Positions 3,391 through 60,034 of a stretch of DNA of 64,000 nt are shown here, piece after piece. A program made the translations under genes and the position numbers. Numbering within the stretch: position 1 is the first letter of the stretch; every line of letters begins with the position of its first letter. The stretch covers positions 47,344 through 111,343 of the forward strand of contig CAZSFZ010000004.1 of NCBI GenBank assembly GCA_964606385.1, in the 5' to 3' direction. The notes below the pieces were generated by a model. That model did not search any database, was not told the origin of the DNA, and saw only the letters and a list, made by a program, of their open reading frames with translations. This stretch comes from an uncultured bacterium (GTDB taxonomy: Bacteria; Omnitrophota; Omnitrophia; Omnitrophales; Aquincolibacteriaceae).

Positions 3391-3478
3391 CACGGTCCAC
3401 GGGCCAAGAAAATCTTGGACGAGGGACAGAAATAACGCATAACAAACCGTGGGGCGTGGCCCGCAGAGCGTGGCCCGA
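3391..3478. repeat. Family-2 palindromic element (CACGGGCC ... GTGGCCCG units) upstream of DAHP synthase
   Basis: cacggtccacgggccaag-spacer-ccgtggggcgtggcccgcagagcgtggcccg. A GGCTAT-like unit (atagggctatggg) lies immediately 5'. Confidence 0.65.
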
Positions 3479-3495
3479 ATAGAGGAGCTTAAAAT

Positions 3496-4512
3496 ATGAT
3501 CATCGTTCTTAAAAAGACCGCGACACCGCAGGAGCTGGAACACATCTGTCAAAAAGTGCGGGAGCTCGGGCTGACCCCGAACGTGTCCCGCGGCGTGGAA
3601 CGCACCGTGATCGGTGTGATCGGGGATGAGGAGAAACTCCAGGTCCAGCCGCTTGAGGTTTTCCCCGGCGTCGAATCGGTGATGTCGATCCTCAAGCCCT
3701 ACAAGCTCGCGAGCCGTGATTATAAGGCCGAAAACTCCGAGTTCGACATGGGGAACGGCGTCAAGGTTGGGGGCAAGAAGATCGTCGTGATGGCTGGGCC
3801 CTGTTCGGTGGAAAATTACGACATGCTGCTGGATCTTGCCAAGACGGTTAAAAAATCTGGAGCCACGTTTTTGCGAGGCGGTGCGTTCAAACCCCGCACT
3901 TCACCGTACTCTTTTCAGGGCCTTGGTGAAGAAGGTTTGAAGTATCTGCGTCAGGCGGCGGATGAAGTGGGGCTTCTGGTCGTGACGGAAGTCATGGACA
4001 CGCGTCAGGTGGAGCTTGTGTCGCAGTACGCGGATATGCTCCAGATCGGTGCGCGCAACATGCAGAATTTCGACCTGCTTAAGGAATGCGGGATGACCAA
4101 GAAGGCGGTTCTCCTGAAGCGGGGATTGGCGGCCACCGTCAAAGATCTTTTGATGTCCGCCGAATACCTGCTCTCCAAAGGGAATTTTAAGGTGATGCTC
4201 GGCGAACGGGGTATCCGGACCTTCGAGACCTCGACGCGGAACACACTGGACCTTAACGCGGTTCCCGTACTGAAGAAAGAAACCCACTTGCCGGTTCTTG
4301 TGGACCCTTCTCACGGGACCGGGTATCGTGATTTTGTGGCGCCGATGGGCATGGCCGGTGTGGCGGCCGGATGCGACGGGCTGATGGTGGAAGTGCATCA
4401 GAACCCCGAGGAAGCCAAAAGCGACGGCGAACAGTCGGTATTGCCGGAACAATTCGACGAAATGATGAAAAAAGTCCGCCTGATTGCGCATGCCGTCGGT
4501 CGCGATATTTGA
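3496..4512 (+). CDS. aroF: 3-deoxy-7-phosphoheptulonate (DAHP) synthase, type I-beta with N-terminal regulatory domain
   Basis: KDO8P/DAHP synthase I-beta core (GPCSVENYDML...LRGGAFKPRTSPYSFQGLG). RBS GAGGAG upstream. Confidence 0.8.
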   Translation: MIIVLKKTATPQELEHICQKVRELGLTPNVSRGVERTVIGVIGDEEKLQVQPLEVFPGVESVMSILKPYKLASRDYKAENSEFDMGNGVKVGGKKIVVMAGPCSVENYDMLLDLAKTVKKSGATFLRGGAFKPRTSPYSFQGLGEEGLKYLRQAADEVGLLVVTEVMDTRQVELVSQYADMLQIGARNMQNFDLLKECGMTKKAVLLKRGLAATVKDLLMSAEYLLSKGNFKVMLGERGIRTFETSTRNTLDLNAVPVLKKETHLPVLVDPSHGTGYRDFVAPMGMAGVAAGCDGLMVEVHQNPEEAKSDGEQSVLPEQFDEMMKKVRLIAHAVGRDI

Positions 4513-4522
4513 TCGCGACCGC

Positions 4523-4578
4523 GGGAAACGGCGAACGTGGAACGATAAATGCTTGCGTTACCCGTTCCATGTTTCCCG
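4523..4578. repeat. Family-1 palindromic element: tandem GGAACG/GAAACG units, spacer, inverted CGTTCC/CGTTTC units
   Basis: gggaaacggcgaacgtggaacg-ataaatgcttg-cgttacccgttccatgtttccc, between the DAHP synthase and tyrA. Confidence 0.7.
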
Positions 4579-4619
4579 AAATAGCCTGATAGGCATTATC
4601 ACGGTAAAGAGGTGAATTT

Positions 4620-5471
4620 GTGTTTAGAAAAATAGCAATTATTGGACTGGGTTTGATGGGTGGCTCTTTGGCGGCGGCCTGCCGCAAGAGATTTCCTGGA
4701 GCCCGGATCATCGGGATCAGCCGGAGCCGCGATGCTCTCGCGCTCGCCAAGAAAAAGAAATGGGTCCATGAGGCCACCCGGGACGTGCTGGCCGGTGTTC
4801 AAGGCGCGGAACTCATCGTCCTCTGTACCCCAGTGAACACGTACTTTCCTTATCTGAAGGCCATTGACCAGGTTTGCGCGAAAAACGCTCTCGTGATGGA
4901 CGTCGGAAGTGTCAAAGGCGCTGTTCTGAAAGAAGTAAAATCGCGTGCCTGGAAGAATTTCTCATTTGTCGGGTGTCATCCGATGGTCGGTTCTCACAAG
5001 CGGGGGATCCAGGCTGTGAATCCGGATCTTTATAGGGGAGGTCTCGTGCTGATGACCCCCGACCGTAAAACCTGCTCCTGCGGCCTAAAAAAAGCCGCAA
5101 AGTTCTGGAAAACTTTTACGCCTCGGATCGTGACATTAACTCCCCAGTCCCACGATAAGCTCGTGGGAGAAGCGAGCCATTTACCGCACGCCGTCGCGGC
5201 TTGCCTTATACACACCGTATCGGATCCCGCTTTTAAGGTGGGTTCCACCGGGCTGCGGGATACGACTCGCATCGCGGCCGCGGCATCCTCCGTTTGGGAG
5301 CCTATCTTTACCTCGAACCGGAAGGTCGTGTTGGCCGCTATGAGCCGTTTTGAACAAAAGCTCCGGGCATTCAAGAAACTCCTCCAGGACCGTGATCCCA
5401 AGAAACTGGTCCGGTTCCTCGATCAGGCGCAGCAGAAGCGGAATTCACTGCGGGGAACGGGAAACGGCTAA
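4620..5471 (+). CDS. tyrA: Prephenate dehydrogenase
   Basis: Rossmann motif IAIIGLGLMGGSLAAA and a TyrA-like core. GTG start. The last codons (LRGTGNG*) are supplied by a family-1 repeat element. Confidence 0.8.
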   Translation: MFRKIAIIGLGLMGGSLAAACRKRFPGARIIGISRSRDALALAKKKKWVHEATRDVLAGVQGAELIVLCTPVNTYFPYLKAIDQVCAKNALVMDVGSVKGAVLKEVKSRAWKNFSFVGCHPMVGSHKRGIQAVNPDLYRGGLVLMTPDRKTCSCGLKKAAKFWKTFTPRIVTLTPQSHDKLVGEASHLPHAVAACLIHTVSDPAFKVGSTGLRDTTRIAAAASSVWEPIFTSNRKVVLAAMSRFEQKLRAFKKLLQDRDPKKLVRFLDQAQQKRNSLRGTGNG

Positions 5472-5514
5472 CGGATAACGTAAAAGCCTTTTTCGTTTAT
5501 CGTTCCCCGTTCAT
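5452..5514. repeat. Family-1 palindromic element overlapping tyrA 3' end
   Basis: ggggaacgggaaacggctaacggataacg...cgtttatcgttccccgttcatcgttc. The left arm encodes the tyrA C-terminus RGTGNG*. Confidence 0.7.
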
Positions 5515-5539
5515 CGTTCTGCGCTTAGGAAAAATCCCC

Positions 5540-5568
5540 TTCCCAAAACCGAAAGATATGCTATACTC
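5540..5568 (+). promoter_or_regulatory. Candidate sigma70-type promoter with extended -10 for rpsA (about 120-nt leader)
   Basis: TTCCCA-17 nt-TATACT, preceded by TG (TGcTATACT). Confidence 0.35.
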
Positions 5569-7250: not shown

Positions 7251-7266
7251 AACCTGACTTCGACCG

Positions 7267-8517
7267 ATGACGAGCCCCAGGAACCGTAGAGTCGTCATCA
7301 CGGGCCTGGGGGTCGTCTCGTCGGTCGGTTTTGGCAAAGAAGCCTTTTGGGATTCCATCTCTCAAGGCAAGAGCGGTGTTTCCAACATCAGCTCCTTCGA
7401 CACCACCCCGTTCACCACCCATTTTGCCGGCGAGATCAAGAATTTCGATGCGTCGGCTTTTATCCTTCCCAAAAAACTCAAACGCATGGACCGCACGACC
7501 CAGTTCGCGGTCGTCGCTTCCAAAATGGCCGTGGCAGACGCGAAACTTGATCTCGAGGAACCTACGGTCCGCGAACGGACCGGAGTGATCATCGGGACGG
7601 CTCTTGCCGGGGTGGGCTATATTCTTGAGCAAGCGGTGATCCTGCAGCAAAAGGGGCCGATGCGGTTGAATCCTTTTACGGCGCTGGCATCTTTTCCGGA
7701 CGCTTGCGCGGGAAATGTTTCGATCGAATTGGGACTGAAGGGTCCGAGTTTTTCTCTCGCGACGGCCTGTTCCTCGGCGTCCGACGCGTGCGGGTATGCC
7801 TTTGATGCGATCCGGAGCGGCGATTTGGATTTTCTTATCATGGGCGGCGCGGAAGCGACGATCTTTCCAGGCATTGTCGCTTCCTTTTGCGTGGCTCGCG
7901 CGCTCTCCACAAGGAATGACGCTCCTGAAAAGGCGTCACGGCCTTTCAGCATGGATCGCGATGGATTTGTGCTCGGGGAAGGTGCCGGGATGTTCGTTGT
8001 CGAAGAATACGAGCATGCAAAAAAACGGGGAGCGCATATTTACGCGGAGATCCTCGGTCACGGTATGACCTGCGACGCTTATCACATGACGGCGCCGGAC
8101 CCGGAAGGGACCCAGGCCGCCCGCGCGATGCAACTTGCCATGGAAACGGCGGGCATTACGCCGGACGAGGTCGATTACATCAATGCCCACGGGACTTCGA
8201 CGCCTCTTAATGATAAGACCGAAACTCTGGTCATCAAAAAGATCTTTGGTCCGCGGGCCTATGAGATCCCGATCAGTTCCATCAAATCCATGATCGGGCA
8301 TTTGATCGGCGCGGCCGGAAGCGTCGAGCTGATCGCGACGCTCCTTGCCATGGAACATCAACTGATCCCTCCGACCATCAATTACAACTCCAAAGACCCC
8401 GAATGCGATCTGGATTATGTGCCGAATGTGGCGCGTCCCGCAAAGATCCGGATTGCGATGAAGAATTCCTTCGGCTTCGGCGGCAAGAATTCCATCCTTG
8501 TTTTAAAAAAGGTCTAA
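7267..8517 (+). CDS. fabF: 3-oxoacyl-ACP synthase II
   Basis: KAS II motifs (RRVVITGLGVVS, active-site ATACSSA, HGTSTPLND, GHLIGAAG). Confidence 0.9.
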   Translation: MTSPRNRRVVITGLGVVSSVGFGKEAFWDSISQGKSGVSNISSFDTTPFTTHFAGEIKNFDASAFILPKKLKRMDRTTQFAVVASKMAVADAKLDLEEPTVRERTGVIIGTALAGVGYILEQAVILQQKGPMRLNPFTALASFPDACAGNVSIELGLKGPSFSLATACSSASDACGYAFDAIRSGDLDFLIMGGAEATIFPGIVASFCVARALSTRNDAPEKASRPFSMDRDGFVLGEGAGMFVVEEYEHAKKRGAHIYAEILGHGMTCDAYHMTAPDPEGTQAARAMQLAMETAGITPDEVDYINAHGTSTPLNDKTETLVIKKIFGPRAYEIPISSIKSMIGHLIGAAGSVELIATLLAMEHQLIPPTINYNSKDPECDLDYVPNVARPAKIRIAMKNSFGFGGKNSILVLKKV

Positions 8518-8530
8518 ACCTTTTTTAAAA
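8501..8530. terminator. A/T-rich 13-bp inverted repeat spanning the fabF stop codon (candidate bidirectional terminator for convergent fabF/lpxA)
   Basis: ttttaaaaaaggt-ctaa-accttttttaaaa. The loop contains the fabF TAA. T-runs on both sides. Confidence 0.35.
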
Positions 8531-8545
8531 CAAGGACCGTTTCTC

Positions 8546-8596
8546 GGAGAACGTCAAGCGGTTAACGTTTGCGTTCAACGTTACCCGTTTCCCGCG
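8546..8596. repeat. Family-1-like element (degenerate) between convergent fabF and lpxA
   Basis: cggagaacgtcaagcgg-ttaacgtttgcgttcaacgttacccgtttcccgcg. Confidence 0.5.
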
Positions 8597-9461: not shown

Positions 9462-9491
9462 AGGCCGGAATTATATCACAAGGCCATAACC

Positions 9492-9508
9492 CGGGGAACG
9501 GGAAACGC
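9492..9508. repeat. Family-1 half element (GGAACG arm only) in lpxA/giant-gene divergent region
   Basis: cggggaacgggaaacg, followed 10 nt later by a perfect GC-rich hairpin. Confidence 0.5.
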
Positions 9509-9518
9509 ATTTTTCAAC

Positions 9519-9543
9519 CCACCCCACCTCGTAGGTGGGGTGG
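9519..9543. promoter_or_regulatory. Perfect 11-bp GC-rich hairpin in lpxA/giant-gene divergent promoter region
   Basis: ccaccccacct-cgt-aggtggggtgg. Neither flanking gene ends here, so it is not a simple terminator. Confidence 0.4.
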
Positions 9544-9792
9544 TCATTGGGGATGTTAATGGAGGCTATTCGATGCTATATCCTGCCATTGATAGCGGGC
9601 ATATTTCGTAAGTCGTTTCAAATAGGCATTTTACAGCTGAAAAAAACGTGATTTTTTTCGGTCCCAACCCTTGTTTTTTCGAATCTCATCAGTTATATTT
9701 TCGGCAACTTTCTAAAACCTGAGAAAAATCCGTTTAAATCTATTTCGAAATCAGGGAATCAAAATCCATTTCCGCAAAGGACAAACTGCTGA

Positions 9793-9888
9793 ATGAATTC
9801 GCATAAAACATTCAAAGCGTTCGTTGCTGGTTTTACGGCCCTCATTTTTACCGTTACAAGTTTCGGAATTTCACCCAACGCTTTTGCG
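9793..9888 (+). other. Predicted Sec signal peptide of giant protein (cleavage near AFA/AAA)
   Basis: MNSHKTFKAFVAGFTALIFTVTSFGISPNAFA|AAA: n-region with K, hydrophobic core, AxA site. Confidence 0.6.
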
Positions 9889-12800
9889 GCCGCAGCCATG
9901 CCTGAAGTGTCTCTGCCGTATCAGGCCGCGCTCGGCCAAAGCCTGAATCTTGCGGTCCCTCAAAAACTTGGCAAACTCGAACATTTCAACGCGGGGCAAA
10001 GCGATAAGCCCGCGATCTTCCATCTCCAGACAGCTCACGGGCATTATGAAGCCCAACAGCAGATCCGCGAGATCCTTCATTATCTTGATAAACAATACGG
10101 TGTGCGGACCGTGCTGGTCGAAGGTAGCGCTTTCAAGCTCGAACCCGAGCTCCTGAATTTTTTCCCCAAAGATAAAGCGCTGACGCAGAAGGTGAATGAC
10201 GCGCTTACAAAACGCGCGATCGTCAAAGGCCCCGAACTGTATTTGCTCGATATGCTCGGGGAACGGGGAACGGGGAACGCAAACGTTAACCGTTCCACGC
10301 ATGACGTTTCCCGCGCTGCCGCACCGGCAGCGTACGGCATCGAAGACCTCAATGCTTATCGCGAGAACGGCGTTTCATTTGTAAACGTGCTCGAGGAAAA
10401 ACAGAAGACCGAACAATTCCTCGCGGACATGAACCTCCAGATCGACCGGCTTGCGAGCCAGCTCCTGAACAAAGACCTCCGCGATTTTCTTCGTCGCGTG
10501 GATGCCTTTGAAAAGAACCAGATCCCGCTCGATACCTGGCTTGCCCAGTTGAAAGGGGAGGCCGCCAAGCGCCTCGAGATCGATCTCGCTTCTCCCACCC
10601 AGCAGTTGGATTGGCCGATGATGGTACGTCTTTTCAAGGCCCAGGAGTTGACCGCGAAAATTGACCGCGAAAAACTCCCGAAGGAACGTGAGGAGTTTCT
10701 GAAAGCGATCCGGCGTTTTATGCCGGGGAACGTAAAACGTGGAACGCAGAACGATCCGTCAACCGTTTCCCGTTCACCGTTCATCGCGATCGAATCGTTG
10801 CTTCATAGCGATTCGATAAGCGTCCAGCTTCCAGATCCTGAAACCGGCATGCTTTTTGAAGATATGGTCACGCAACTTCCCGCGAATTTCAATTATGAAG
10901 CTTTCCCGAATGTCCGCAATTTTATCGCGACCCTGCTCCTTCAAAGCGAGTTGAAAGCCGACCTGGTGATGTTGGAAGTCCAGAAACTTACGGCAGCGGT
11001 CACGGAAAAGCTGACCCGCAACAAGACCGAGAAAAAACTGGTGACGCTGCTTGCCGACCACCGGTTGTTGCAGAAGCTCTTTGCGCTGGAGCTCACGCCG
11101 GCCGATTACGAAGCAATCGCGGGACACGATCCACGGTCCAAGGCCCACGAAAAAACTTTAAAGCCCTCAGCGATCGTAGCGCGGTTTAAAAACGTGGCCC
11201 GTGGCCCGGGAGCCGTGGCCCGGAGCAAGGCTGTTCAATTTGAAAACGTTCAAGAACTTGATCAGCTCGACCAGTTATATGAAAGCGCGATGAAGTTCTA
11301 TGAGGGCGTCAAAGGGCGCGACGAGCTCATGATGAAGCGCGTTGAAGAGCGTCTCAAGGAGACGGGGGATCAGAAAGTCGCTGTGATTACCGGCGGTTTC
11401 CATTCCGAGCCTTTCCATAAATATTTTGCGAACAAGCAATACACCTATGCCCTTATTTCTCCGCGCATCTCAGGCGCTGACGACAAAGGCCACGTTGCCT
11501 ACATCGAAAGCGTCATGGGCATCACGAAACGCGCGACACGCGAGTCCGTTTCTCCGGCGGACCGGCAGGTGCTCGCGGCGGAGAATTTATACGGGGTCGA
11601 TCAGGCAGCCTACCGGAACCTGGTCCGGAAAGTCATCGCGGATGTGACGCGGCCCCACCTTGCAGAAGCAGACGCGGCTCGTTTGAAATTTGCGGCTGGG
11701 CTTGCGACGGCGGGGAATTTCCGCGCTGAAATGCGTCAGACCGTGCCGGGCACGCCTCAGAACACCGGGGAGACGGCGGCCATTACCTTTACGGAAGCCA
11801 AAGATATCGTAGAAGCCCGTAAAGCCAAAGCGCGGGTCCAGGGGACGCGCGGGGCTTGGCCCAGTCTCGACTCTGTTTTTCGCGATTCCTCTTTTGTGTT
11901 CATTCCAATCGCTGTCGGGTCCGAATTTGCTGGAAATTATTTTCTCCGAAGCCGCTCCGAAGCGAGAGCAAACGATGAGGGATTGATAGAGCAAATTGTG
12001 AGGGACCTTAAAGAGAACATTCAAGCGGGTCCCGACTTTATCTTGACTGCTCTTCAAAACCGGCGCAGCTTGCTGACCCTTGAGCTCAATTATTATGATA
12101 TTGCGGAGCAAATTTACCAGACGCTTTCAAAAACCGGGATGAAAAAGGTGGAAGCCGAGATTTTTTTCAGCAAAAACTCCGATGCTATCCGCCAGGCATT
12201 TTCCCGTTCCGAGGCCCGTACCGAGGAAGAAGAAAGAGCTTTGAGTGTCGATATCCTGCTTGGGCAGTCGCCTCAAAAGTTGCCCCAGGATGTTATTCAT
12301 AAGCTCAAAGAAAACGGTTTTCAGACGTTTGGGGACATTCTGACGGCTCTTGATGAGAAGCTTCGGAAAGGGAAGAGAAGGTTTTCTTTTCTGGATTGGG
12401 TGACAGAAGTTGAATTCCTCGTCGCTGTGAAGCGCGAGGCGCCCATCAGCTATGCCAAAATTCAGAAAATCCGCACCCCCAAAAGCCGTGCGGAAGTACG
12501 CGAAGCAAGCGAATTCGGGATTGAGGAAGATGACAAGTTTCCAATGACCGATGCCGAGGCGGATCTTTCCCTCGACGATATCATCGGGGAACTGTATGCC
12601 GTAGCGGATGCGGATGAAAGCGATTCCGGCGATGCCAAGGCTGAAGCGCTTCAGCATATTGATTTGATCCAGAGCGCCAAGCATAAAAATCAACTTCTTC
12701 CGGCTATCGTTGATGCTCAGAAATTCCTCCGCAGTCCCTTAGCGGCCAATCGATCAGAAGTTCGAATCGATCCGAAAGAGCTTGAAGCAAAATTCCCGAC

Positions 12801-32654: not shown

Positions 32655-32660
32655 AGCCCA

Positions 32661-32730
32661 GGAAACGGGAAATGGCGAACGGGAAACGGACTACAGCTTG
32701 CGTTCAACGTTCCCCGTTATCCGTTTCCCC
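32661..32730. repeat. Family-1 palindromic element between PNP gene and ileS
   Basis: ggaaacgggaaatggcgaacgggaaacgg-actacagcttg-cgttcaacgttccccgttatccgtttcccc. Confidence 0.7.
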
Positions 32731-44884: not shown

Positions 44885-44898
44885 CCAGGGAGTCGATT

Positions 44899-45507: not shown

Positions 45508-45556
45508 CCGATAGCACCCGTTTTGCTATAGGCTATGAGCTGAGGGCTATAAGCTG
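45484..45556. repeat. Family-3 palindromic element (ATAGCC / GGCTAT units) overlapping ubiX 3' end
   Basis: cagcctatagctgatggccaatagccgatagcacccgttttgctataggctatgagctgagggctataagctg. Supplies the ubiX C-terminal codons and stop. Confidence 0.6.
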
Positions 45557-51157: not shown

Positions 51158-51748
51158 ATGAAAAAACAAAAGAATTCGCAGGGTGAGGATAAATTTGAAG
51201 GATTGGTCCGGGACATGCTCAGGCTTTTGGGCGAGGATCCCAAACGTGAGGGCCTGCAAAGGACCCCAGTGCGCGTCGCAAAGTCGCTTCGGTACCTGAC
51301 CCAGGGCTATCAGAATGATGCCAAGGAGATCCTGGCTCACGCGGTCTTCAAGGAGCCTTACGATGAAATGGTGATCGTGAAGGATGTCGAGATCTTCTCA
51401 CTCTGTGAACACCACCTGCTGCCTTTTTATGGTAAAGCCCATGTTGCTTATATTCCCAACGGAAAGATCATCGGGCTTTCCAAGATCCCGCGCCTTGTCG
51501 AGGTGTTCTCGAGGAGGCTTCAGGTCCAGGAACGGCTTACGACCCAGATCGCGGAATGCCTGATGGATGCCTTAAAACCCAAGGGGGTGGCGGTCGTGAT
51601 CGAGGCGCTGCATCTTTGCATGTCCATGCGCGGCGTCAAAAAAGCCGACGCTTATACCATCACGAGCTCCATGCTTGGAGCCTTCCGCAGGGACGCCCGC
51701 TCCCGAAGTGAGTTCTTGAGCCTGATCCGGCTGAAAAGGGAAGAGTAA
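51158..51748 (+). CDS. folE: GTP cyclohydrolase I
   Basis: [35 protein letters not shown] core motif. Confidence 0.9.
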
Positions 51749-51754
51749 ATATCA

Positions 51755-51806
51755 GTGCCACGGGCGCACGGGCCAAGGTCCACGACGTGGTGCGTGGATC
51801 GCGGGG
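51755..51806. repeat. Family-2 palindromic element between folE and lpxD (convergent)
   Basis: gtgccacgggcgcacgggccaaggtccacgacgtggtgcgtggatcgcgg. Confidence 0.6.
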
Positions 51807-51813
51807 AGGATCT

Positions 51814-52857
51814 TTAGGAAGTTTTTTCTAGTTTCTTTTCCAATTCCGCGACTTTTTTCTTGAGAGCGCGGACATCCTCGAGGGTTTCCGCGGCGCGAAG
51901 CTGGGCGCCGATCTGGCGGCGGGCTTCGGCGTAAGGGCGCGCGGGCTGACCGAAGACGATCTGCTTGCCGGGGACTTTCTTGTTGGAAGGGAATCCGGCG
52001 CCGGCTCCGACCATGGTCCAGTCGCCGATCTCCACGTGATCTCCTACCCCGACACTGCCGCCCATCGTGACGTGGGAACCGATCTTGCAGCTTCCCGAAA
52101 TGCCGGTTTGAGCCGAAATGACCGTGTGAGGTCCCAACACGACATTGTGGGCGATCTGCACGAGGTTGTCGATCTTGCAGCCTTTGCCGATACGCGTGGA
52201 GCCGATCGCCGCGCGATCCACCGTGACACAGGCGCCGATCTCCACATCATCTTCGATCACGACGTTACCGATCTGAGGGAGCTTTTCATGCGCGGCCGGT
52301 GTCGCGACATAACCGAAACCATCCGCTCCGATGACCGAACCTGCGTGAATGATGACCTTCGCACCCAACTCACAGTTCTCATAGAGCGTCACATTCGGGT
52401 GGATCACGGAATCCGCGCCGATCTTGACGTTCTCACCGATGAAGACATGCGAACAAAGGACCGTGTTGTCGCCGATCACGGCATTTTCACCGATCGTGAC
52501 AAAAGGTTCGACCGTAACGTTCTTGCCGAGTTTTGCCGTTTTGGCGATGGAGGCTTGAGGGGAGACCGTCCCCGGGAATTTCCGGGCAGGGAAGAGCTCC
52601 CGGAGGATCTGCGCCCAGGCCCGCTTGGGGTACTCGACCTGAATAAGGACTTTGGAAGATTTCGCGATCTGCTTGGGGACGATCATGCAGGCGATCTCGG
52701 AGGATTCAAGGGCATTGAAGCCGCGTTCGTCCTGCACAAATGAAATATGCCCTTTGAGCGGGTTTTCGAAGTTCGTAATACCTTCGATCACCATGGAGGC
52801 ATTCCCGATCACCGTACCGCCGATAAGGTCCGCGAATTCCTGAACAGTTTTTTTCAT
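51814..52857 (-). CDS. lpxD: UDP-3-O-acylglucosamine N-acyltransferase
   Basis: LpxD N-terminal domain ([11 protein letters not shown]) then a long hexapeptide-repeat beta-helix. C-terminal coiled coil. Confidence 0.85.
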
Positions 52858-52976
52858 AGGGGAGCAAGTATAACAAGAAGAACAGACGTCTTCAAAATGA
52901 ATTTTATATAAAGAGTTATGGTTTTAATCTATAATTCAAATCGTCTTTAACAATATTTAAATCGGAGGAAATTGAA

Positions 52977-53249
52977 ATGACCAAAGAACAGATTAACTAT
53001 CTGCTGGCGCTCGCAACGCTTTTTGTCGTCTGGCTTTATTTCAATACTTTTTATGCTAATGCAGCAAAGAGGGGGTATAGTGGGAATCCTCTTGCTGGAT
53101 TAAAAGCCGTTGTCGCTAAAGCTCCTAATGCTCCTGTCTTTCCCAAAATTCCTGAGGCACCTTTCACGAAGATATCCCAAGTCAATAGAGCTGACGCGCC
53201 AGCGTCTGCAATCCCCGTGATGCCAGCCGGCGACGCGGATAAAAGCTAG
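52977..53249 (+). CDS. Small membrane protein of unknown function (90 aa)
   Basis: Strong RBS GGAGGA 8 nt upstream. One TM helix (LLALATLFVVWLYF), then a Pro/Ala-rich tail. Confidence 0.45.
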   Translation: MTKEQINYLLALATLFVVWLYFNTFYANAAKRGYSGNPLAGLKAVVAKAPNAPVFPKIPEAPFTKISQVNRADAPASAIPVMPAGDADKS

Positions 53250-53325
53250 TTTCTTTTTTAACGTTGATTTATGAAGGGACCCAAAGAAGTTAAAAAGCGG
53301 CAGGCTGGATTTTCGGCCTGTTTTG

Positions 53326-54000
53326 CTAAGGGTTGTTTTCTTCCGGAGAATCGGAGTTAGAAGGTTCTTCCTGGGGAGCTTCGGGAAGGGCAAGATAATC
53401 TTCCAGATTGGCGCGGTTGTTCACGTCACTCGTCCACGTCATGAAATCGAGTCGTTGTTTTTCGGCCGCCTCTTCCTTGGCCTTTGTGTCCGTCAGTTGG
53501 TCGTAGCCCGGAGGGACAAAACTCGCGATCTGGATGCGTAAGAGTTTCTGGATGCGCATGAACTCCCGGAGCCCTTCCTCGAATTCCCGCGGGGAGATGT
53601 GCAGGGTCCGGGTAAGCCAGATCTTGTACTGTTCTTCGTTCGCGTTGACCAATCCCTGGTCCTTCAGGATCTTGGCGATCTCTTTCTGGACCTCGTCATC
53701 CGAGATCTTGATGCCTTTCCGTTTGGCTTCACGCGAGTAGATGATGTTTTGCCACGTGTAATCACGCAAGATCTCGGGGTCGTCAGCCGCTTTTTCGGTG
53801 GGCATGAAAAGCTGCGTGGAGCGGTAGAATTGGTTGTATTCCTGGAATGTGACCGGCTTGCCGAAGGCCTTGCCCGCGTATCGGCCGTCCTTCTTGTTCG
53901 TGACCAGGTCCACAATCGAGCCAGCCCCAAAGAGAAGGGCAAGCGCCACGACCGTGATCCAGACAATGGCTTTTGTGTTGCTGCGTAGCACCTTGAGCAT
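53326..54000 (-). CDS. SurA-N-domain (PpiD/SurA-like) periplasmic chaperone, membrane-anchored
   Basis: N-terminal anchor (AIVWITVVALALLF) then a SurA_N-type helical domain. Internal ATG at 54000 (MLKVLRS) chosen. The ORF-track extension to 54105 translates AT-rich promoter DNA. Confidence 0.6.
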   Translation of the reverse strand: MLKVLRSNTKAIVWITVVALALLFGAGSIVDLVTNKKDGRYAGKAFGKPVTFQEYNQFYRSTQLFMPTEKAADDPEILRDYTWQNIIYSREAKRKGIKISDDEVQKEIAKILKDQGLVNANEEQYKIWLTRTLHISPREFEEGLREFMRIQKLLRIQIASFVPPGYDQLTDTKAKEEAAEKQRLDFMTWTSDVNNRANLEDYLALPEAPQEEPSNSDSPEENNP

Positions 54001-54155
54001 AACTGCGGATACTGTAGCATAAGAAAAAATGCGGAGAAAGTAAAAATATGTAGAAAGTATGCGAAAAAAGTGCCGAAAACAACTTAGTATGTATTTCCAT
54101 AGCAACTTTCGATAAAACTATTGAAATGGTCTTGGGGGCCATATATCATTACTGT

Positions 54156-54638
54156 ATGAACGCTAAAGGGTTATCGCTTGTCGAGATCGTTGCGAGCATC
54201 GTCGTTTTGTCAGTCATTGCCCTCGGAGCCACAGCGACAGTTACGGTAGTGAATAGTGATCAGGTTCGGATGGCCGGGGGCAGCACCCTTGAACTTCAGG
54301 CGCTCAGTTTCGCGCGACAAACGATTGAAGAGCTTCGAAACGATGTGAGGGGCACGACTGAAGAGATGTGGTATGCGAACAATTCCACGGCTTGGAGTTT
54401 GGCCGATAATAGTTACGCGATACCGTGCACTTCAGCTCTTGGTCAACCATGCGGAGTGGGGACATGGTATACCCCCCAGGGTGCTGGATTTGTGAACGGG
54501 CTTCCCCCGGGCAACCTCGCGACTCGCGGAGGCCGGAGGCGTTATCTTGTACAAGATATGTCTACCGGGGTCGGTACTGCCGGCATGGACGTTGCATATA
54601 AACGAATCATAGTGCAGGTGGACCAATGGGCCGATTGA
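54156..54638 (+). CDS. Prepilin-type (type IV pilin / pseudopilin) protein
   Basis: Short basic leader MNAK, then G|LSLVEIVASIVVLSVIAL (class III signal, Glu+5). Confidence 0.65.
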   Translation: MNAKGLSLVEIVASIVVLSVIALGATATVTVVNSDQVRMAGGSTLELQALSFARQTIEELRNDVRGTTEEMWYANNSTAWSLADNSYAIPCTSALGQPCGVGTWYTPQGAGFVNGLPPGNLATRGGRRRYLVQDMSTGVGTAGMDVAYKRIIVQVDQWAD

Positions 54639-55246
54639 AGAGAGCCTCCTCAGGTTTTACTCTCCTGGAGCTGGTCATTGCTTCGACGTTGGCTTTCATA
54701 GTGATCCTTGCAGCTTCCAACCTTCTCATCAACTTTGGCCGCTTTACTTCCACGACCATCCGCGCGGAAGCCACTCTGATGGATGCCGCTCTTGCCGCAG
54801 TTGAAGATGTTGTGGCTTGCATCAATGGGGCGAACGCGGTATCGATTATTCCGGACGGTCAGCTTGCCGCCCGCCCCGCCGGCTGCGTCGGCAGTAGTTG
54901 CATTCAGGTCCGAACGGATCAAAAAATGCCGCTCGGGTGTGTTGGTAACAACTGCAGTTACTCCCCAACTGATTTCACGAATGATGTGGTTCACACTTAT
55001 TGGCGGGAGTTTCTTAACAACAATTGGGCCATACGGTATTCATCGCGGAATTTGGTGAATAATACAACTGTCGGGCCGATCTCTCTAGCCGATAGAGGCA
55101 TTACAAGCCTCAGTTTTGCGCGCAACGCGGCGGACAGGAACAAAATCACGATCACTTTAATAGTACAAGCCGCCAGCGGTCCGTCAGGCGCCCTGTCTAC
55201 TGAGAACCTGGTTACGACTGCTACGATGCGGGGGGCGACGGGATAA
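54626..55246 (+). CDS. Prepilin-type protein
   Basis: MGRLKRASSG|FTLLELVIASTLAFIVIL. 4-nt overlap with the upstream pilin gene. Confidence 0.65.
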   Translation: MGRLKRASSGFTLLELVIASTLAFIVILAASNLLINFGRFTSTTIRAEATLMDAALAAVEDVVACINGANAVSIIPDGQLAARPAGCVGSSCIQVRTDQKMPLGCVGNNCSYSPTDFTNDVVHTYWREFLNNNWAIRYSSRNLVNNTTVGPISLADRGITSLSFARNAADRNKITITLIVQAASGPSGALSTENLVTTATMRGATG

Positions 55247-55250
55247 ACTT

Positions 55251-55610
55251 ATGTCCAGAGGTTTTGCTTTGATCACTGTTTTGGCTGTTGCGATCATGGT
55301 TGCGTTGGGAGCCGCCACGGTGCTTCAGTCCATGTCAAGCTATGGCGTCATGAAAGCGACGACCATTAAAGAGACGCAATTTAAATACCTTGCTGAGGCG
55401 GCCATGCAGCATGCTCTTTATCGATGCAGGACCAATACGAACGGTTGTGCCGCGGGATTATTGACTTGTTGTGTTAATGAGTCTAATTTTACTGTCAATA
55501 CCACCGTGAACGGCGTTTCTGTTAATATACCGGCACCTATTTCAATTGCGAATGTGGGCTCGGGTACGAGAGAAGTGAATACTACAATTCAATATGCGGA
55601 GAGTTACTAA
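55251..55610 (+). CDS. Pilin-like protein lacking Glu+5 (GspK/PilX-like minor pseudopilin?)
   Basis: MSRG|FALITVLAVAIMVAL hydrophobic N-terminus without the conserved Glu. Four Cys in the C-terminal part. Confidence 0.5.
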   Translation: MSRGFALITVLAVAIMVALGAATVLQSMSSYGVMKATTIKETQFKYLAEAAMQHALYRCRTNTNGCAAGLLTCCVNESNFTVNTTVNGVSVNIPAPISIANVGSGTREVNTTIQYAESY

Positions 55611-55652
55611 CGGGGCGAAGAACGACTAAAACCACCTTAAGGGGAGGAAGTT

Positions 55653-56048
55653 ATGAGCGTCCGGAGAGGGTTCACGTTAACTGAAATTATCGTCACCATC
55701 GCCATCGTGGCTGTGATCGCGGTGGTCGCATTGCCCAATTTCACCAAAGCCCGGCAGAGAGCCTCGGCAAGGCAAGCGGCGGATTATTTGCGGACTATCG
55801 CCACCGCTGAGAAGCTGTATTACGCAAAATGGAAATCGTTTATTGGCCTCCCCAATGCCGCTACAATTCAGGGGCTGACCGGCGCGGAAGTCAGTTCAAG
55901 AGATTTTAACTTTGCGGTAGCAGCAACTCCCACCAGCTTTACCGCAACGGCTACGAGGATAGGCGGTAGCGGCGGGACGATTACGTTAAATCAGAACGAT
56001 GCCTGGGGAGCAACAGGTTCTGAATCGAGATATTTGCCGCAAGGGTAA
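55653..56048 (+). CDS. Type IV pilin (PilA/GspG-like)
   Basis: MSVRRG|FTLTEIIVTIAIVAVIAVVALPNF. About 130 aa. Confidence 0.75.
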   Translation: MSVRRGFTLTEIIVTIAIVAVIAVVALPNFTKARQRASARQAADYLRTIATAEKLYYAKWKSFIGLPNAATIQGLTGAEVSSRDFNFAVAATPTSFTATATRIGGSGGTITLNQNDAWGATGSESRYLPQG

Positions 56049-56114
56049 GACCCAAAGCGGAATTTTGAAAAGGATATTCGCGGTCTATTCCCCGCGAAGG
56101 AAGCGGGGGCGCGC

Positions 56115-56522
56115 ATGATGAAAATGAGGAGCAAAATGAAAAAAGGATTCACGCTGACGGAGATTCTGATAACGATATGTATCTTGGCGATCATGGCCGC
56201 GATCGCCGTCCCGACCTTCAATGCTGCCAGAACGAAGAACCAGGCGGCTCAAGCGATGTCTTATCTTCGTGCGATCCGTATGGCGGAAATGATGAATTAC
56301 TCGAAATGGGGGACCTACCAGTCCAACATCGCATCGTTGGGGGTTGAAACAGCCGGTTCTCCCTACGCTTTCACTTATCAGGTGTTGAACGCCGGAAATC
56401 CTACGGCCATTCCTCCTGTAAGACCGAGTTTTCGCCTTACTGCGACGGGGCCCGGAGGAACGATTACGCTCGATTCGGATGGGACTTGGGGCGGGACTTA
56501 CGCCCCATTGCCTGCGGCCTGA
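56115..56522 (+). CDS. Type IV pilin (PilA/GspG-like)
   Basis: ...MKKG|FTLTEILITICILAIMAAIAVPTF. Paralogue of the preceding gene. Exact start among four nearby ATGs is uncertain. Confidence 0.75.
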   Translation: MMKMRSKMKKGFTLTEILITICILAIMAAIAVPTFNAARTKNQAAQAMSYLRAIRMAEMMNYSKWGTYQSNIASLGVETAGSPYAFTYQVLNAGNPTAIPPVRPSFRLTATGPGGTITLDSDGTWGGTYAPLPAA

Positions 56523-56627
56523 CGATTGATCAAAGGTGGGGTCCTACAAGACGGCTTCATCTTGCGGTAAGGTGACTCAACGCGGGTTTTGAGTTTTTTT
56601 ATGAGATTCAAAATTGAGGGGAAAAAG

Positions 56628-57263
56628 ATGTTCTATCGGAATATTGGGATTTTAGCGGCTGTGTCCGTGTTTTTGTTTCTTGCTACTGCCCAAGCTGCCC
56701 GCTTGGAAAGGACAACGCAATACCCCTCTCCTGAGGGGGACTATCGAAGTTTGCTGACTACGGATCAGTCGTTTTTCATGACCAATAATACCGCGGGCAC
56801 GAGTTTGGGGATTGGGACCTCGGCCCCGACGAATATTACCGCCAATGATGGCGGTGCCAATGTTGATCTGCATATTACCGGGTCGATAGTTCAGGACGGA
56901 TGGGTGAATGTCATTGATGCTGGCGCGCCGAACTTCCAAAACAGTTGGACGGATTGTGCAAGCGCCTTGGGTTTCAATTCGGCCGGTTATTTCAGGGACA
57001 GAAATGGGATCGTCCACCTGAAGGGGGCCGTGCGGGGGGGAACGATCGATTCGACAATATTTACGTTGCCAGCCGGTTTCAGACCGAGCATGAACCAACT
57101 CTTTATTGTGCCTGTTCAGGCCTCAGGATCGACGTGTGCCGGTTATCGATACGGACGGCTTACTGTACTAACCAACGGCCGAGTGTACGCGGAACATCCC
57201 GTCGGAGTGACGCCCGTTGCGTTTGGCTTGGACGGAGTCACATTTAGAGCCGATGGATATTAA
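56628..57263 (+). CDS. Secreted protein, paralogue 1 of a tandem triplet (unknown family)
   Basis: RBS GAGGGG before ATG 56628. Signal peptide ending AQA. Conserved blocks GIGT.AP.NI..ND, GIVHLKG, LPAGFRP, LDGVTFRADGY shared with the next two genes. Confidence 0.65.
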   Translation: MFYRNIGILAAVSVFLFLATAQAARLERTTQYPSPEGDYRSLLTTDQSFFMTNNTAGTSLGIGTSAPTNITANDGGANVDLHITGSIVQDGWVNVIDAGAPNFQNSWTDCASALGFNSAGYFRDRNGIVHLKGAVRGGTIDSTIFTLPAGFRPSMNQLFIVPVQASGSTCAGYRYGRLTVLTNGRVYAEHPVGVTPVAFGLDGVTFRADGY

Positions 57264-57309
57264 AACCATGGGAAACGGCAAAAAAGGTTTTTTAGGAGGA
57301 TCCAAAGAA

Positions 57310-57933
57310 ATGCCTTGGAAGAAGATGTTTATAGCATTCAAGATATTTGTGATATTTGTGCTGCCAGCCGGCCTTGCGGATACAGGAAGCGTTGATGTTG
57401 CGACGTACTATCCTTCGTCGGATGCGACATATCCGACATTGCTTACCACGGGAACAACAACGATCGCCACGGACAATTCTTTCGGGAGAAACGTCGGCAT
57501 CGGGACCGCAGCGCCCGGAAATATTGGTGAGAACGACGCAGGAGGGGCTGGGGTCGATCTCAATGTGACCGGGACGATAGTTCAGGAACCGTGGACAAAT
57601 ATCGGTGCTATCAGTGCACCCGCCTTTCAGGGCGCTTGGGCTAATTATCCCGGTGCAACCTGGAATCAGGCCGGTTTTTTTCGTGATAAAAGCGGTATTG
57701 TGCATTTGAAGGGGTTGATCCGTTCAGGGGTTGTTCCTTCAACGGTCTTTAATTTGCCTGCAGGATATCGCCCTGCGCGAGAGGAGCATTTTTTCGTTTT
57801 GTCGCACAACAATTTAAACTATATAGACGGTCTGGTTGTTGTTTCGTCTGCGGGGGCCGTTTCCGTGGATTGCGGGGCCAGCGCCAATTTTGTTTCATTG
57901 GACGGTATTTCGTTTCGGGCAAATGGATATTAG
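57310..57933 (+). CDS. Secreted protein, paralogue 2 of a tandem triplet
   Basis: RBS AGGAGGA 8 nt before ATG 57310. Signal peptide. Same conserved blocks, ending LDGISFRANGY. Confidence 0.65.
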   Translation: MPWKKMFIAFKIFVIFVLPAGLADTGSVDVATYYPSSDATYPTLLTTGTTTIATDNSFGRNVGIGTAAPGNIGENDAGGAGVDLNVTGTIVQEPWTNIGAISAPAFQGAWANYPGATWNQAGFFRDKSGIVHLKGLIRSGVVPSTVFNLPAGYRPAREEHFFVLSHNNLNYIDGLVVVSSAGAVSVDCGASANFVSLDGISFRANGY

Positions 57934-57971
57934 CAGATAATTTCGCGATGGTTTGCGACTTGAGGTGGAAA

Positions 57972-58583
57972 ATGTCGTTTCGGAGCTTTGCTTGGATGAT
58001 CGTTTTGGCGTTGATGCTGCCGGCGCGAGGATGGGCCGGTTCGGTGGAACTGACCACCTATTTGCCCATGCCGCATGGCCGTTATAAGCGAGTGACCACC
58101 ACGGGGCAAACCAATTTTGCGACCGGTAATAATGCGGGACAAGCCGTTGGCATCGGGACTGCGACCCCTACGAATATTGCGGCGAACGATAGTGTTCCTA
58201 ATATCGATCTGCACATTACGGGAAATATCATGCAGGAGAATTGGAAGCTTATCGGAGCCGCGGGGCAGCCGGGTTTTCAAAGCGGTTTTGAAAATTGTCC
58301 CTCGGGATGGGGTTATAATTCAGCGGGTTTTTTTCGGGATAAAAACGGGATCGTGCATCTGAGGGGTTTGGTGCGAGGACCGCTTAACAGTACGGTTTTT
58401 CAATTGCCGGCGGGATACACGCCGGCGAGGAATGAACTTTTCGCTGTGATGTCCGCCGGTTCCGGTTCTCATAGCTGGTCGCGCCTTACGGTTCAATCCA
58501 ATGGGGTCGTGCTATTTCAGCACAACGGAGGCCCCGATTGGTACTGTCTGGATGGCATTACGTTTCGGGCGAGCGGATATTAG
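57972..58583 (+). CDS. Secreted protein, paralogue 3 of a tandem triplet
   Basis: RBS GAGGTGG before ATG 57972. Signal peptide (ARGWAGS). Same blocks, ending LDGITFRASGY. Confidence 0.65.
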   Translation: MSFRSFAWMIVLALMLPARGWAGSVELTTYLPMPHGRYKRVTTTGQTNFATGNNAGQAVGIGTATPTNIAANDSVPNIDLHITGNIMQENWKLIGAAGQPGFQSGFENCPSGWGYNSAGFFRDKNGIVHLRGLVRGPLNSTVFQLPAGYTPARNELFAVMSAGSGSHSWSRLTVQSNGVVLFQHNGGPDWYCLDGITFRASGY

Positions 58584-58655
58584 GATTTTCAAAGGCATTT
58601 GATTTTTTGAGAAGTAAAGTAAGGGTGAAGTTCCGTCCTTTTTATTTTGAGTTTG

Positions 58656-58684
58656 TTGACATTCCCGAAGTGCTTTTGTATGAT
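58656..58684 (+). promoter_or_regulatory. Near-consensus sigma70-type promoter upstream of guaB-like/guaA
   Basis: TTGACA-17 nt-TATGAT, about 110 nt upstream of ATG 58796. Confidence 0.5.
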
Positions 58685-58795
58685 ACCGCAAATGGGACAC
58701 GAATCATTTCGAGTTACTCACCTTTTTAAGCAAAATTCCGCAGGTGTTTCTTCTGCCCGCTCACTACTTTTTCACGACTAAGGGAGGAATCTGTC

Positions 58796-59956
58796 ATGTC
58801 AGTTTTTATCGGTAAGGACCGCAAAGCACGCAGGGCCTATGGTTTTGATGAGATCGCGCTCGTCCCGGGGGATATCACCATCAACCCCGAGGAAGTGGAT
58901 ATTCAGATGAAGATCGGGAAGATCATCTTTGATATCCCGTTCCTGGCATCCGCCATGGACGGTGTGGTGGACCCGAAATTCGCCGTTGCGATGGGGAAAC
59001 TTGGGGGTTTAGCCGTGCTGAACCTCGAAGGCATCTATACTCGCTACGACGATTATGAGACGATCTTGGATGAGATCGCGAAATCGTCCCCGGAAAAAGC
59101 GACGGAGCTTGTCCAGAAGCTCTACGTGAAGCCGATCGACGAGAAGTTGATTGCCAAGCGTATCCGGGAGATCAAAAAGGCCAAAGTGCCGTGTGCCGTG
59201 AGCGCGATCCCGCAGCGTGCTGAGAAATTCGGCAAGATCGCCGAAGAGGCCGGGGCGGATATCTTTGTGGTGCAGTCGACTGTTACGACGGTGCATCACA
59301 TCGCGAAAGCCTACAAGGTCGTGGATTTCAAGAAACTTTGTAAAGGGATGAAGATCCCCGTGATCCTCGGGAACTGCGTGACTTACAAGGTCGCGCTGGA
59401 ACTCATGGAAACCGGTTGCGCGGGACTTTTGGTCGGGATCGGGCCCGGTTCGGCCTGTACGACGCGCGGCGTGCTCGGGATCGGCGTGCCGCAGGTGACG
59501 GCCATCGCGGATTGCGCGGCGGCCCGCGAATTCCATCACAAGAAGACCGGTAAGTATGTTTCCATCATCGCGGACGGCGGCATGTCCACCGGCGGCGATA
59601 TCTGCAAATCCATCGCTTCCGGTGCGGACGCGGTGATGGTGGGATCCGCTTTTGCCCGCAGCAAGGAAGCGCCGGGCCGTGGTTTTCACTGGGGGATGGC
59701 GACACCGCACGCGAATCTGCCGCGCGGCACCCGGATCCGGGTTGGGACGACGGGGACGCTTGAAGAGATCCTGGTCGGGCCCGCGAAACTGGATGACGGG
59801 ACGCAGAACCTTGTAGGAGCGCTCCGCACTTCGATGGGGAACGTCGGCGCCCAGACCATCCGTGAGATGCAGCTGACCGAGATCGTGATCGCTCCGGCCA
59901 TCAAGACCGAAGGCAAAGTGTTCCAGTCCGCTCAAAAATTAGGAATGTGTAAGTAA
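58796..59956 (+). CDS. IMP dehydrogenase-family protein lacking the CBS subdomain (GuaB-related)
   Basis: IMPDH/GMPR TIM-barrel motifs (catalytic loop GIGPGSACTTR, phosphate loop GGMSTGGDICKSIASGADAVMVGS). Only 386 aa, so no room for a CBS pair. Confidence 0.7.
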   Translation: MSVFIGKDRKARRAYGFDEIALVPGDITINPEEVDIQMKIGKIIFDIPFLASAMDGVVDPKFAVAMGKLGGLAVLNLEGIYTRYDDYETILDEIAKSSPEKATELVQKLYVKPIDEKLIAKRIREIKKAKVPCAVSAIPQRAEKFGKIAEEAGADIFVVQSTVTTVHHIAKAYKVVDFKKLCKGMKIPVILGNCVTYKVALELMETGCAGLLVGIGPGSACTTRGVLGIGVPQVTAIADCAAAREFHHKKTGKYVSIIADGGMSTGGDICKSIASGADAVMVGSAFARSKEAPGRGFHWGMATPHANLPRGTRIRVGTTGTLEEILVGPAKLDDGTQNLVGALRTSMGNVGAQTIREMQLTEIVIAPAIKTEGKVFQSAQKLGMCK

Positions 59957-59958
59957 AA

Positions 59959-60034
59959 CAGGGACACGAGCTTCGGGCCACGCACCCCCTAGAACAAAGA
60001 GTGATCGTGGCTCGTGGATCGTGGCCCGTGGACC
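59959..60034. repeat. Family-2 palindromic element between guaB-like gene and guaA
   Basis: gggacacgagcttcgggccacgcacc-spacer-cgtggctcgtggatcgtggcccgtggacc. Confidence 0.65.

Follow-up and report, generated by a model that had tools for sequence, protein, structure and literature searches.

Intergenic heptameric repeats have been described in Xanthomonas, with the unit GGGAATC or (GGGANTN)n, and in Nostoc sp. PCC 7120, with the unit GGGGA(C/T)T (Rehm et al. 2015, PMC4692102). Most of these arrays hold about 4 units, about 90% are intergenic and they lie nearer the end of the upstream open reading frame (ORF); they frequently form convergent pairs capable of folding into a stem-loop, their length and sequence differ even among close relatives, and no function has been established for them (PMC4692102). 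Here we describe small palindromic elements built from heptamers, among them four copies of a family designated family 2, in a 64-kb stretch of contig CAZSFZ010000004.1 from an uncultured bacterium of the phylum Omnitrophota; this stretch, hereafter the window, is the part of the genome that was examined, and statements on this genome refer to it. The four family-2 loci are genuine and dispersed, and constitute one of several families in a class of small, imperfect palindromes, made of heptamer arrays, that spans the clade. The arms, not the spacers, are common to the copies of a family; sites have been colonised repeatedly by different families, individual copies are dispensable, and at gene ends the elements hold the position of terminator-type hairpins.

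The repeats of Xanthomonas and Nostoc are the closest described system, as family 2 shares with them the 7-nt unit, the heterogeneous arrays of few units, the mostly intergenic location near the end of the upstream ORF and the arrangement in convergent pairs. What sets the present elements apart is that several unrelated unit families occur side by side and supplant one another at orthologous sites, that in-frame copies are found at recurrent protein-loop sites, and that the host belongs to a different phylum, the Omnitrophota; family 2 is also unable to form the G-quadruplex proposed for the Xanthomonas and Nostoc arrays. A literature search for such repeats in Omnitrophota returned nothing relevant. 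New, then, are the coexisting and mutually replacing unit families, the conservation of arms only around local spacers that include coding sequence, the recurrent in-frame colonisation of loops, and the phylum.

Among other heptamers, TAACTGA repeats are dispersed in Beggiatoaceae, cyanobacteria and Bacteroidetes as sets of 2-6 direct units, their origin being unknown and a post-transcriptional role having been proposed (MacGregor 2015, PMC4679880). They stand just upstream of start codons, with 169 sets direct and 1 indirect (PMC4679880), whereas the Omnitrophota arrays come in convergent pairs that follow closely on stop codons. REP sequences are imperfect palindromes, and in the REPINs associated with RAYT transposases the spacing is conserved (Bertels & Rainey 2011, PMC3116915). 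Like these, the elements of the window are short extragenic inverted doublets with a spacer and a predicted hairpin, fall into several families, appear as new copies beside old ones and lie at gene 3' ends or between cistrons; their heptamer arms, however, have no internal palindrome, their spacers are unrelated, and no RAYT was found in the window or in a crude search of 1.9 Mb. They also differ from miniature inverted-repeat transposable elements in that the internal sequence is not conserved; a target-site duplication was not seen at the single pair of filled and empty sites, the flanks of which are too diverged to judge.

The Rickettsia palindromic elements (RPE) measure 100-150 bp, have a conserved full-length consensus and lack heptamer periodicity. 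Several families of them, reportedly described by Ogata and colleagues in 2000, are said to lie in-frame within genes, where they are tolerated at surface-exposed positions. The Omnitrophota elements resemble RPE in their in-frame insertion at tolerated positions of ORFs (three copies in one giant ORF), but are only 52-103 nt long in the window and conserve only their arms. The cyanobacterial STRR sequences of Calothrix and Anabaena are short, tandemly repeated heptanucleotides, dispersed, mostly non-coding and of several unit sequences per genome. These are direct tandem arrays, and the convergent pairing, degenerate units and coding insertions of the Omnitrophota elements fall outside that description.

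That bacterial intergenic DNA has an excess of 7-nt repeats is a long-standing, unexplained observation, and this clade offers an unusually informative natural experiment: turnover, arm-only conservation, bracketed coding sequence, recolonised loops and an element-free relative render the copying unit, a trans-acting specifier and the role of the hairpin at gene ends testable. On the practical side, the elements create spurious GTG starts, extend or truncate the ends of ORFs, add low-complexity peptides, and break short-read assemblies of uncultured lineages.

Family 2 is built from convergent arrays of a degenerate heptamer

A preliminary description of the window had noted four loci sharing a second repeat unit, taken to be 8 nt long. 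The loci are present where they had been placed, but the unit is a degenerate heptamer, GGNCCAC in the left arm and GTGGNCC in the right, and the 8-mer GTGGCCCG consists of one unit and the base that opens the following one. Every 7 nt a 5-nt core recurs (CCACG in left arms, CGTGG in right arms), with 2 free bases between cores; core spacing is 7 or 14 nt at all four loci, and Tandem Repeats Finder reports period 7 at 11193-11222 and 60005-60031. Each locus consists of a convergent pair of arms, with 3-4 units each, around an unrelated spacer, and 3-4 units per arm is the rule across nine family-2 copies from the window and related contigs. The arms are direct tandem heptamers without an internal dyad, and the spacers (1, 16, 39 and 43 nt in the window, 3-17 nt elsewhere) bear no relation to one another. 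The parallel that had been drawn with family 1, a set of palindromes with a GGGGAAC-type unit, holds at all four loci: tandem short units, a spacer, then inverted units. Elements were detected by a search for periodic cores, a strict period-7 autocorrelation followed by a search for partners being too insensitive for units so degenerate.

Because the motifs are short and GC-rich and the window has 54% GC, chance similarity or an artefact of composition had to be considered. Clusters of at least four CCACG/CGTGG cores nonetheless occur exactly four times in the 64 kb, all four with left-type cores preceding right-type cores, whereas 300 first-order Markov simulations gave on average 0.14 clusters, 0.02 of them convergent, with maxima of 2 and 1, respectively. 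The 8-mer occurs 8 times against 2.55 expected, a count that none of 100 shuffles reached. Positions 51526-60300 are 100% identical in an independent Logan assembly (L001), so the family-2 loci are not an assembly artefact, and orthologous copies are present in other genomes. Chance or composition is thus refuted by the enrichment, the simulations and the identical assembly, and we regard its probability as negligible.

Element 1 (3387-3477; no strand is assigned to the intergenic copies) lies between an aminotransferase stop (3376) and the ATG of a DAHP synthase gene (3496). Its left arm (3387-3408) reads GGGACAC GGTCCAC GGGCCAA G and its right arm (3448-3477) CGTGGGG CGTGGCC CGCAGAG CGTGGCC CG, with a spacer of 39 nt between them; the predicted RNA fold is -34.2 kcal/mol (z = -2.7). 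Element 2 (11121-11223, + strand) is in-frame in a giant ORF. The preliminary description had seen here three direct copies at 11193-11223; that tandem and its translation, NVARGPGAVARS, are confirmed, but it is the right arm of a palindrome, and the inverted left arm (11121-11149) lies 43 nt upstream. Element 3 (51755-51806) stands between the convergent folE (stop 51748) and lpxD (stop 51814) genes; with a left arm at 51755-51784, a 1-nt spacer and a right arm at 51786-51806, it is the weakest copy, having a short stem and a fold z of -0.2. Element 4 (59961-60035; fold z = -1.9) has a left arm at 59961-59986, a spacer of 16 nt and a right arm at 60003-60035 made of four units in perfect period, CGTGGCT CGTGGAT CGTGGCC CGTGGAC. 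It begins 4 nt past the stop of an IMPDH-like gene (59956) and ends 10 nt short of the guaA ATG (60046); it was thus rightly placed between the guaB-like gene and guaA, but does not, as had been thought, carry the guaA start, and the GTG at 60001 is an artefact of the ORF finder that falls inside the right arm.

Three of the four window copies, the in-gene copy included, share asymmetric ends, GGGACACG on the left and CGTGGCCCG on the right. As the pattern used for the metagenome search contained GGGACACG, the conservation of that end among metagenome copies is biased, and only the three window copies are free of this bias. An apparent shared orientation relative to transcription was withdrawn, since the palindrome is the same on both strands and only the asymmetric ends define a strand; an in-gene copy from a relative (L142) has the opposite orientation.

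Arms are shared between copies and spacers are not

Sequences from related organisms were mostly 2-21 kb pieces of metagenome-assembled genomes (MAGs), labelled L001 and so on. A metagenome scan found family-2 copies beyond the window in L106 (two), L167, L142 and L172; L016 holds a remnant. The contig L106, 78-80% identical to window positions 1875-4376, carries the orthologue of element 1 with one extra left unit, and its second family-2 element fills a gap that is empty in the window, giving a filled/empty pair of sites. In L167 the copy lies between two co-directional genes, and in L142 it is in-frame in a homologue of the giant protein. Family 2 thus has further copies in related contigs, and as these stand in unrelated contexts, local duplication is not the explanation for the four loci.

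Two orthologous pairs were available for a comparison of conservation. Orthologous arms were 95-97% identical (one right arm 80%), as against 67-79% for spacers and about 78% for the flanking, mostly coding, DNA. In the L106 orthologue of element 1 the spacer is 67% identical; in the L016 orthologue of the family-1 element at 61587-61672 the arms are 96-97% and the spacer 79% identical. In a sister family with the unit GTACGG, the right arm of elements from 5 genomes contains one and the same irregular unit, CCGTAC-gccttNcN-CCGTAC, which may be read as the signature of a master copy.

Soil contigs of higher GC also gave numerous matches in the scan, to CACGGNC arrays that were either solitary or long. 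Heptamer arrays of CACGGNC type that are long, or that abut one another, are present in metagenome contigs of other GC content (L159 1-102, L150 1394-1547, L155 861-934 and three arrays in L164), one example being (AAGGGGA)x5 joined directly to (GGCCCAC)x6.

Orthologous sites carry different heptamer families in relatives

The closest relatives by guaA are Candidatus Omnitrophota MAGs, the guaA products of L002-L019 being 82-94% identical to that of the window at the amino acid level. Unit families in these relatives were assigned by visual inspection of printed sequences. Inverted period-7 arrays were found between the IMPDH-like gene and guaA in 13 of 14 syntenic relatives, all with unit families other than that of element 4, and a heptamer palindrome lies between guaA and the next gene in 17 of 18. 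Across 18 related Omnitrophota genomes, at least seven unit families (GGGGAAC, GTACGGN, GGGACTC, CAACGNN, GGATGGC, GGATAGG/ATAGCG, an AT-rich family and family 2) share one architecture at orthologous intergenic and in-gene sites, while a single genome tends to reuse one family at several sites. The clade has 11.6 arrays of period 7 per 100 kb, as against 0.3-2.4 for periods 4, 5, 8, 10 and 11. Both the period-7 enrichment and the recurrence of one architecture with at least seven units at orthologous sites support the earlier suggestion that one process yields several families.

L016 shares families 1 and 2 with the window even though its guaA product (83% amino acid identity) is more distant than that of L002 (94%), which has GTACGG there; this indicates that families are replaced at occupied sites. 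In L008, the guaA product of which is 90% identical and the GC 0.47, spacers are short and 12.2 kb of sequence, including both guaA-flanking sites, holds no heptamer arrays, so the elements are dispensable. L008 may represent a natural 'knock-out' lineage for the element system.

Arrays of this architecture extend far wider than the clade, since inverted heptamer arrays also flank guaA in loci from Planctomycetia, Verrucomicrobia (including the cultured Cerasicoccus frondis), FCPU426 and Lentisphaeria (L028, L032, L037, L062, L064, L072, L077 and L078), with units CAATTAC, CAATTAT, GTCGACA, TTAGGAG, AATTAGG, GAAGGCA and GAGTTGG. In all seven unit families of the clade (window, L002-L019 and L082-L084) a CG stands at the unit boundary (AACG, CACG, TACG, CTCG, GGCG, AGCG), which places a CpG every 7 nt on both arms; not all families of the other phyla do so.

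In-frame copies occupy recurrent sites in a giant gene

Three of the window's elements are in-frame in the giant ORF (9793-24513), which encodes a secreted protein of 4906 amino acids. Its N-terminal domain of about 600 residues, with the motifs HIQTAHGxYEAQ ... VITGGFH, is conserved in Omnitrophota; it gave zero Pfam matches, and a Foldseek search of the PDB returned nothing significant, the best of its weak matches being 2rad/3b55 (BcR135). Nine homologues of the N-terminal 636 residues were aligned, and DNA was fetched for six. In one of them (L085) the domain is a separate ORF of 616 amino acids that overlaps the next ORF.

At site A (10255-10315, + strand) a family-1 palindrome accounts for a 63-nt, 21-residue insertion (residues 154-174) that is absent from all seven homologues covering the site. 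At the same site in L142 (903-1052), a partial GGGACAC array is followed by three consecutive small, perfect, in-frame hairpins, tccccctttcgcaaaggggga, gggggatttctaaatctcccc and cccctctttacgaaagagggg. Site B (10723-10788, + strand) is held by family 1 in the window, by GTACGG in L082, by GGATGG in L084 and by family 2 in L142, and is empty in L085 and L186. Site C is that of element 2, whose left arm encodes GHDPRSKAH and whose right arm encodes the peptide given above. The 43-nt spacer between them encodes a (T)LKPSxIVxRF segment ((T)LKPSAIVARF in the window) that is conserved in homologues without arms, and P458 is invariant in the alignment. In L084 arms of the GGATGG family bracket the same coding segment. 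In three other homologues only one side of site C is filled, the right position by a complete GTACGG element in L082 and L083 and the left position by a complete CTCCCCT/AGGGGAG element in L186.

In an AlphaFold2 model (mean predicted local distance difference test score, pLDDT, 72.5), the residues encoded by all three in-frame copies form low-confidence, non-helical segments between confident helices, with pLDDT below 50 at residues 160-173 (site A) and 314-327 (site B). By this model, the in-frame copies are tolerated in predicted protein loops.

Arms on both sides of an ancestral segment could arise by a purely local process, in which 7-nt polymerase slippage expands seeds and intrastrand (quasipalindrome) template switching copies the array across a pre-existing hairpin, nothing being copied between loci. 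Such a process would also account for lone half arrays, for differences in unit number between orthologues such as the extra left unit of L106, and for the spread of heptamer arrays across phyla, and slippage has been proposed as the origin of heptamer over-representation (PMC4692102). It fits poorly, however, with the family-specific irregularities and asymmetric ends common to unrelated loci, with the identical order of the arms in all copies of a family, and with the recurrence of the same few families at many sites of one genome; moreover, arms are not copies of their partners, and units are degenerate rather than identical. We consider the purely local origin quite unlikely.

Elements hold the position of hairpins at gene ends

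The window contains 12 two-arm heptamer palindromes of three families (four of family 2, seven of family 1 and one with the unit ATAGCNN), in addition to a lone half array. Nine of the 12, and three of the four family-2 copies, are intergenic, and of the 19 intergenic gaps that measure 60 nt or more, 9 hold a complete element. The elements start 2-10 nt past the upstream stop, or overlap it, and the distance from their end to the next start is 10-40 nt. Between the convergent folE and lpxD genes, L016 retains a family-2-like remnant and L009, L015 and L019 have other heptamer families, whereas L003, L005 and L006 have ordinary terminator hairpins with A/T tracts. That classical hairpins stand at this site in some relatives indicates that the palindromes occupy the positions of terminator hairpins. 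The window elements are predicted to fold into bulged hairpins, with z of about -3 to -3.6 for family 1 and of -2.7, -1.9, -0.9 and -0.2 for family 2.

This position, immediately behind stop codons and at places that in relatives hold classical terminators, could mean that the elements are themselves ordinary intrinsic terminators, or else G-quadruplex elements of the kind proposed for Xanthomonas, family 1 being G-rich. An intrinsic terminator, however, consists of a GC-rich stem-loop and a T-run, and no T-run follows the right arm of any window element; most elements, furthermore, lie between closely spaced, co-directional genes of apparent operons, and some lie inside coding sequence. The four tracts of at least three G that a quadruplex requires never occur in family 2, the units of which have runs of GG only, and family-1 arrays have at most three such tracts. 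Either identity is very unlikely. A rule by which the 5' arm is the G-rich one was rejected, as family 2 is not G-rich and L186 has its C-rich arm first.

A proposed model for the spread of the arms

We propose, with moderate confidence, that arms are copied into sites that form or tolerate hairpins, with gain and loss of 7-nt units and decay of the outer units, and that the resulting bulged hairpin acts in a REP-like manner at 3' and intercistronic positions. The unit copied between loci would be the arms and the spacer would be local sequence, as is suggested by the unrelated family-2 spacers and by the in-gene spacer encoding a segment conserved in arm-less homologues. New copies would favour sites that already hold or tolerate a hairpin, such as gene 3' ends and protein loops; arrays would later gain or lose 7-nt units and decay at their outer units, and families would succeed one another at the same sites, leaving a few dominant families per genome. 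The element may fold into its bulged hairpin in single-stranded DNA or in the transcript, and at a gene end the folded element would stand where a 3' or terminator hairpin of the ordinary kind is otherwise found, a situation much like that of enterobacterial REP elements. The arms might be copied by a trans-acting enzyme or, alternatively, by gene conversion together with slippage.

Several observations weigh against this proposal. With respect to folding, two of the four family-2 copies (z = -0.9 and -0.2) fold no better than shuffled sequences, the U-tract signature of a terminator is absent, and a terminator scan called none at 51755-51806, 59961-60035 or 61587-61672. The stability of sense and antisense folds showed no bias (n = 42 elements, p = 0.33), and, with seven copies per family, arms were no more complementary to their own partners than to the arms of other copies (0.47 versus 0.53 in family 2, 0.45 versus 0.55 in family 1); with neither co-variation between arms nor strand bias, there is no positive evidence for selection on pairing or on structure at the RNA level. 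With respect to copying, no target-site duplication or sharp insertion boundary could be made out, the flanks of the sole filled/empty pair, in L106, being too diverged to judge. At site C the split copies of the window and L084 have arms on both sides of ancestral coding sequence, which ordinary copy-and-paste of a whole palindrome cannot explain. No mobilising gene (transposase, reverse transcriptase or nuclease) was found among 39 window ORFs scanned with Pfam, all of them housekeeping, and the association with a transposase or retron-like enzyme that the preliminary description had raised thus gained no support from the window. A phmmer search of stop-to-stop segments in 1.9 Mb of related DNA found no Y1 transposase, although, with a single IS200 TnpA sequence as the query, this is weak evidence. 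Finally, occupancy of 17 out of 18 at one site exceeds what would be expected of a purely selfish element.

As arms are conserved without co-varying, the conserved feature is the family core at a 7-nt period on both arms, not compensated pairing. This, and a conservation that is symmetric between strands, would suit arrays to which sequence-specific proteins bind, each unit family having a factor of its own that recognises 5-nt cores at 7-nt spacing in double-stranded DNA or in single strands; the convergent pairs would then give symmetric binding at gene ends, for example in roadblock termination, nucleoid organisation or translational control. Families that dominate particular genomes would be expected if arrays co-evolve with their factor, the very high occupancy of the same sites also agrees, and binders of the S1, Csp and CsrA types have been proposed for the TAACTGA repeats (PMC4679880). 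No candidate protein was identified, however; in-frame and stop-overlapping copies look more like insertions that are tolerated than like sites that were designed, a single genome holds several unrelated families, and the close relative L008 lacks elements at both guaA-flanking sites. Protein binding is, in our estimation, a possible but doubtful explanation.

Mobilisation of the REPIN/RAYT type is unlikely. Under it, the palindromes would be non-autonomous and would be moved as single-stranded hairpins by domesticated Y1 (IS200/IS605-like) transposases encoded elsewhere, one per family; the hairpin-capable inverted doublets with a spacer, the several distinct families per genome and the clusters that look formed by insertion beside existing elements (L018, L142, L159) all parallel REPINs (PMC3116915). 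The arms, on the other hand, are direct heptamer arrays and not palindromic REPs, neither the length nor the sequence of the spacer is conserved, the searches of the window and of related DNA described above yielded no Y1 transposase, and the split copy around coding sequence does not fit.

Beyond the copying of arms proposed here, we tentatively raise a more general idea, which we hold with low confidence: an undescribed templated process might install family-specific arrays on both sides of an existing segment, be it a hairpin, a gene end or coding sequence, and might overwrite one family with another. The unit would be set in each genome by a 'specifier', in the form of a protein or of a nucleic-acid template, and the same process could underlie the heptameric repeats of Xanthomonas, cyanobacteria and the PVC group.

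Other palindromes and features of the window

The window encodes housekeeping genes, almost all on the + strand, and the giant secreted protein; the gene map was curated from Pfam hits, a greedy longest-ORF caller having been dropped because it chose antisense ORFs. A tRNA scan of the window found none, and a scan of the whole window with Rfam covariance models gave zero matches at the gathering threshold.

Apart from the copies at sites A and B, the family-1 palindromes carry no assigned strand. The first (4520-4578; fold z = -3.6) follows the DAHP synthase stop (4512), and the second (5450-5522) overlaps with its left arm the 3' end and stop of a prephenate dehydrogenase ORF (4620-5471). A third lies at 8545-8596 between the convergent fabF-like and lpxA genes, a fourth at 32659-32730 (z = -3.6) between a phosphorylase-family ORF (stop 32654) and ileS (ATG 32763), and a fifth at 61587-61672 (z = -2.9), separating guaA (stop 61584) from the gene that follows (ATG 61686, MSHSDF...). 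The single palindrome of the third family (ATAGCNN; 45487-45556, no strand) overlaps the stop of a ubiX-like ORF (44683-45507) and ends 11 nt before an ATG (45568). As the elements at 45487-45556 and 5450-5522 overlap upstream stops, their left arms supply the last codons and the stop of the ubiX-like and prephenate dehydrogenase genes, respectively.

The lone family-1 half array (CCGGGGAACGGGAAACGC; 9491-9508, no strand) lies in the 331 nt that separate the divergent lpxA and giant genes, where it is followed by a hairpin, cccaccccacctcgtaggtggggtgg (region about 9491-9545). Between the convergent fabF-like and lpxA genes, directly before the family-1 element there, a perfect 19-nt palindrome with A/T tracts (TCCTTGTTTTAAAAAAGGT / ACCTTTTTTAAAACAAGGA; 8495-8536) resembles an ordinary bidirectional terminator. 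An in-frame 12-nt tandem repeat (AAAAAATCATCC, three copies; 39109-39144) is located at the 5' end of a dksA-like ORF (39097-39582). Upstream of the IMPDH-like gene, positions 58656-58684 hold a strong sigma-70-like promoter match (TTGACA-17-TATGAT, 11/12), which is consistent with a single operon that runs from the IMPDH-like gene through guaA into the gene after it, two heptamer palindromes interrupting it.

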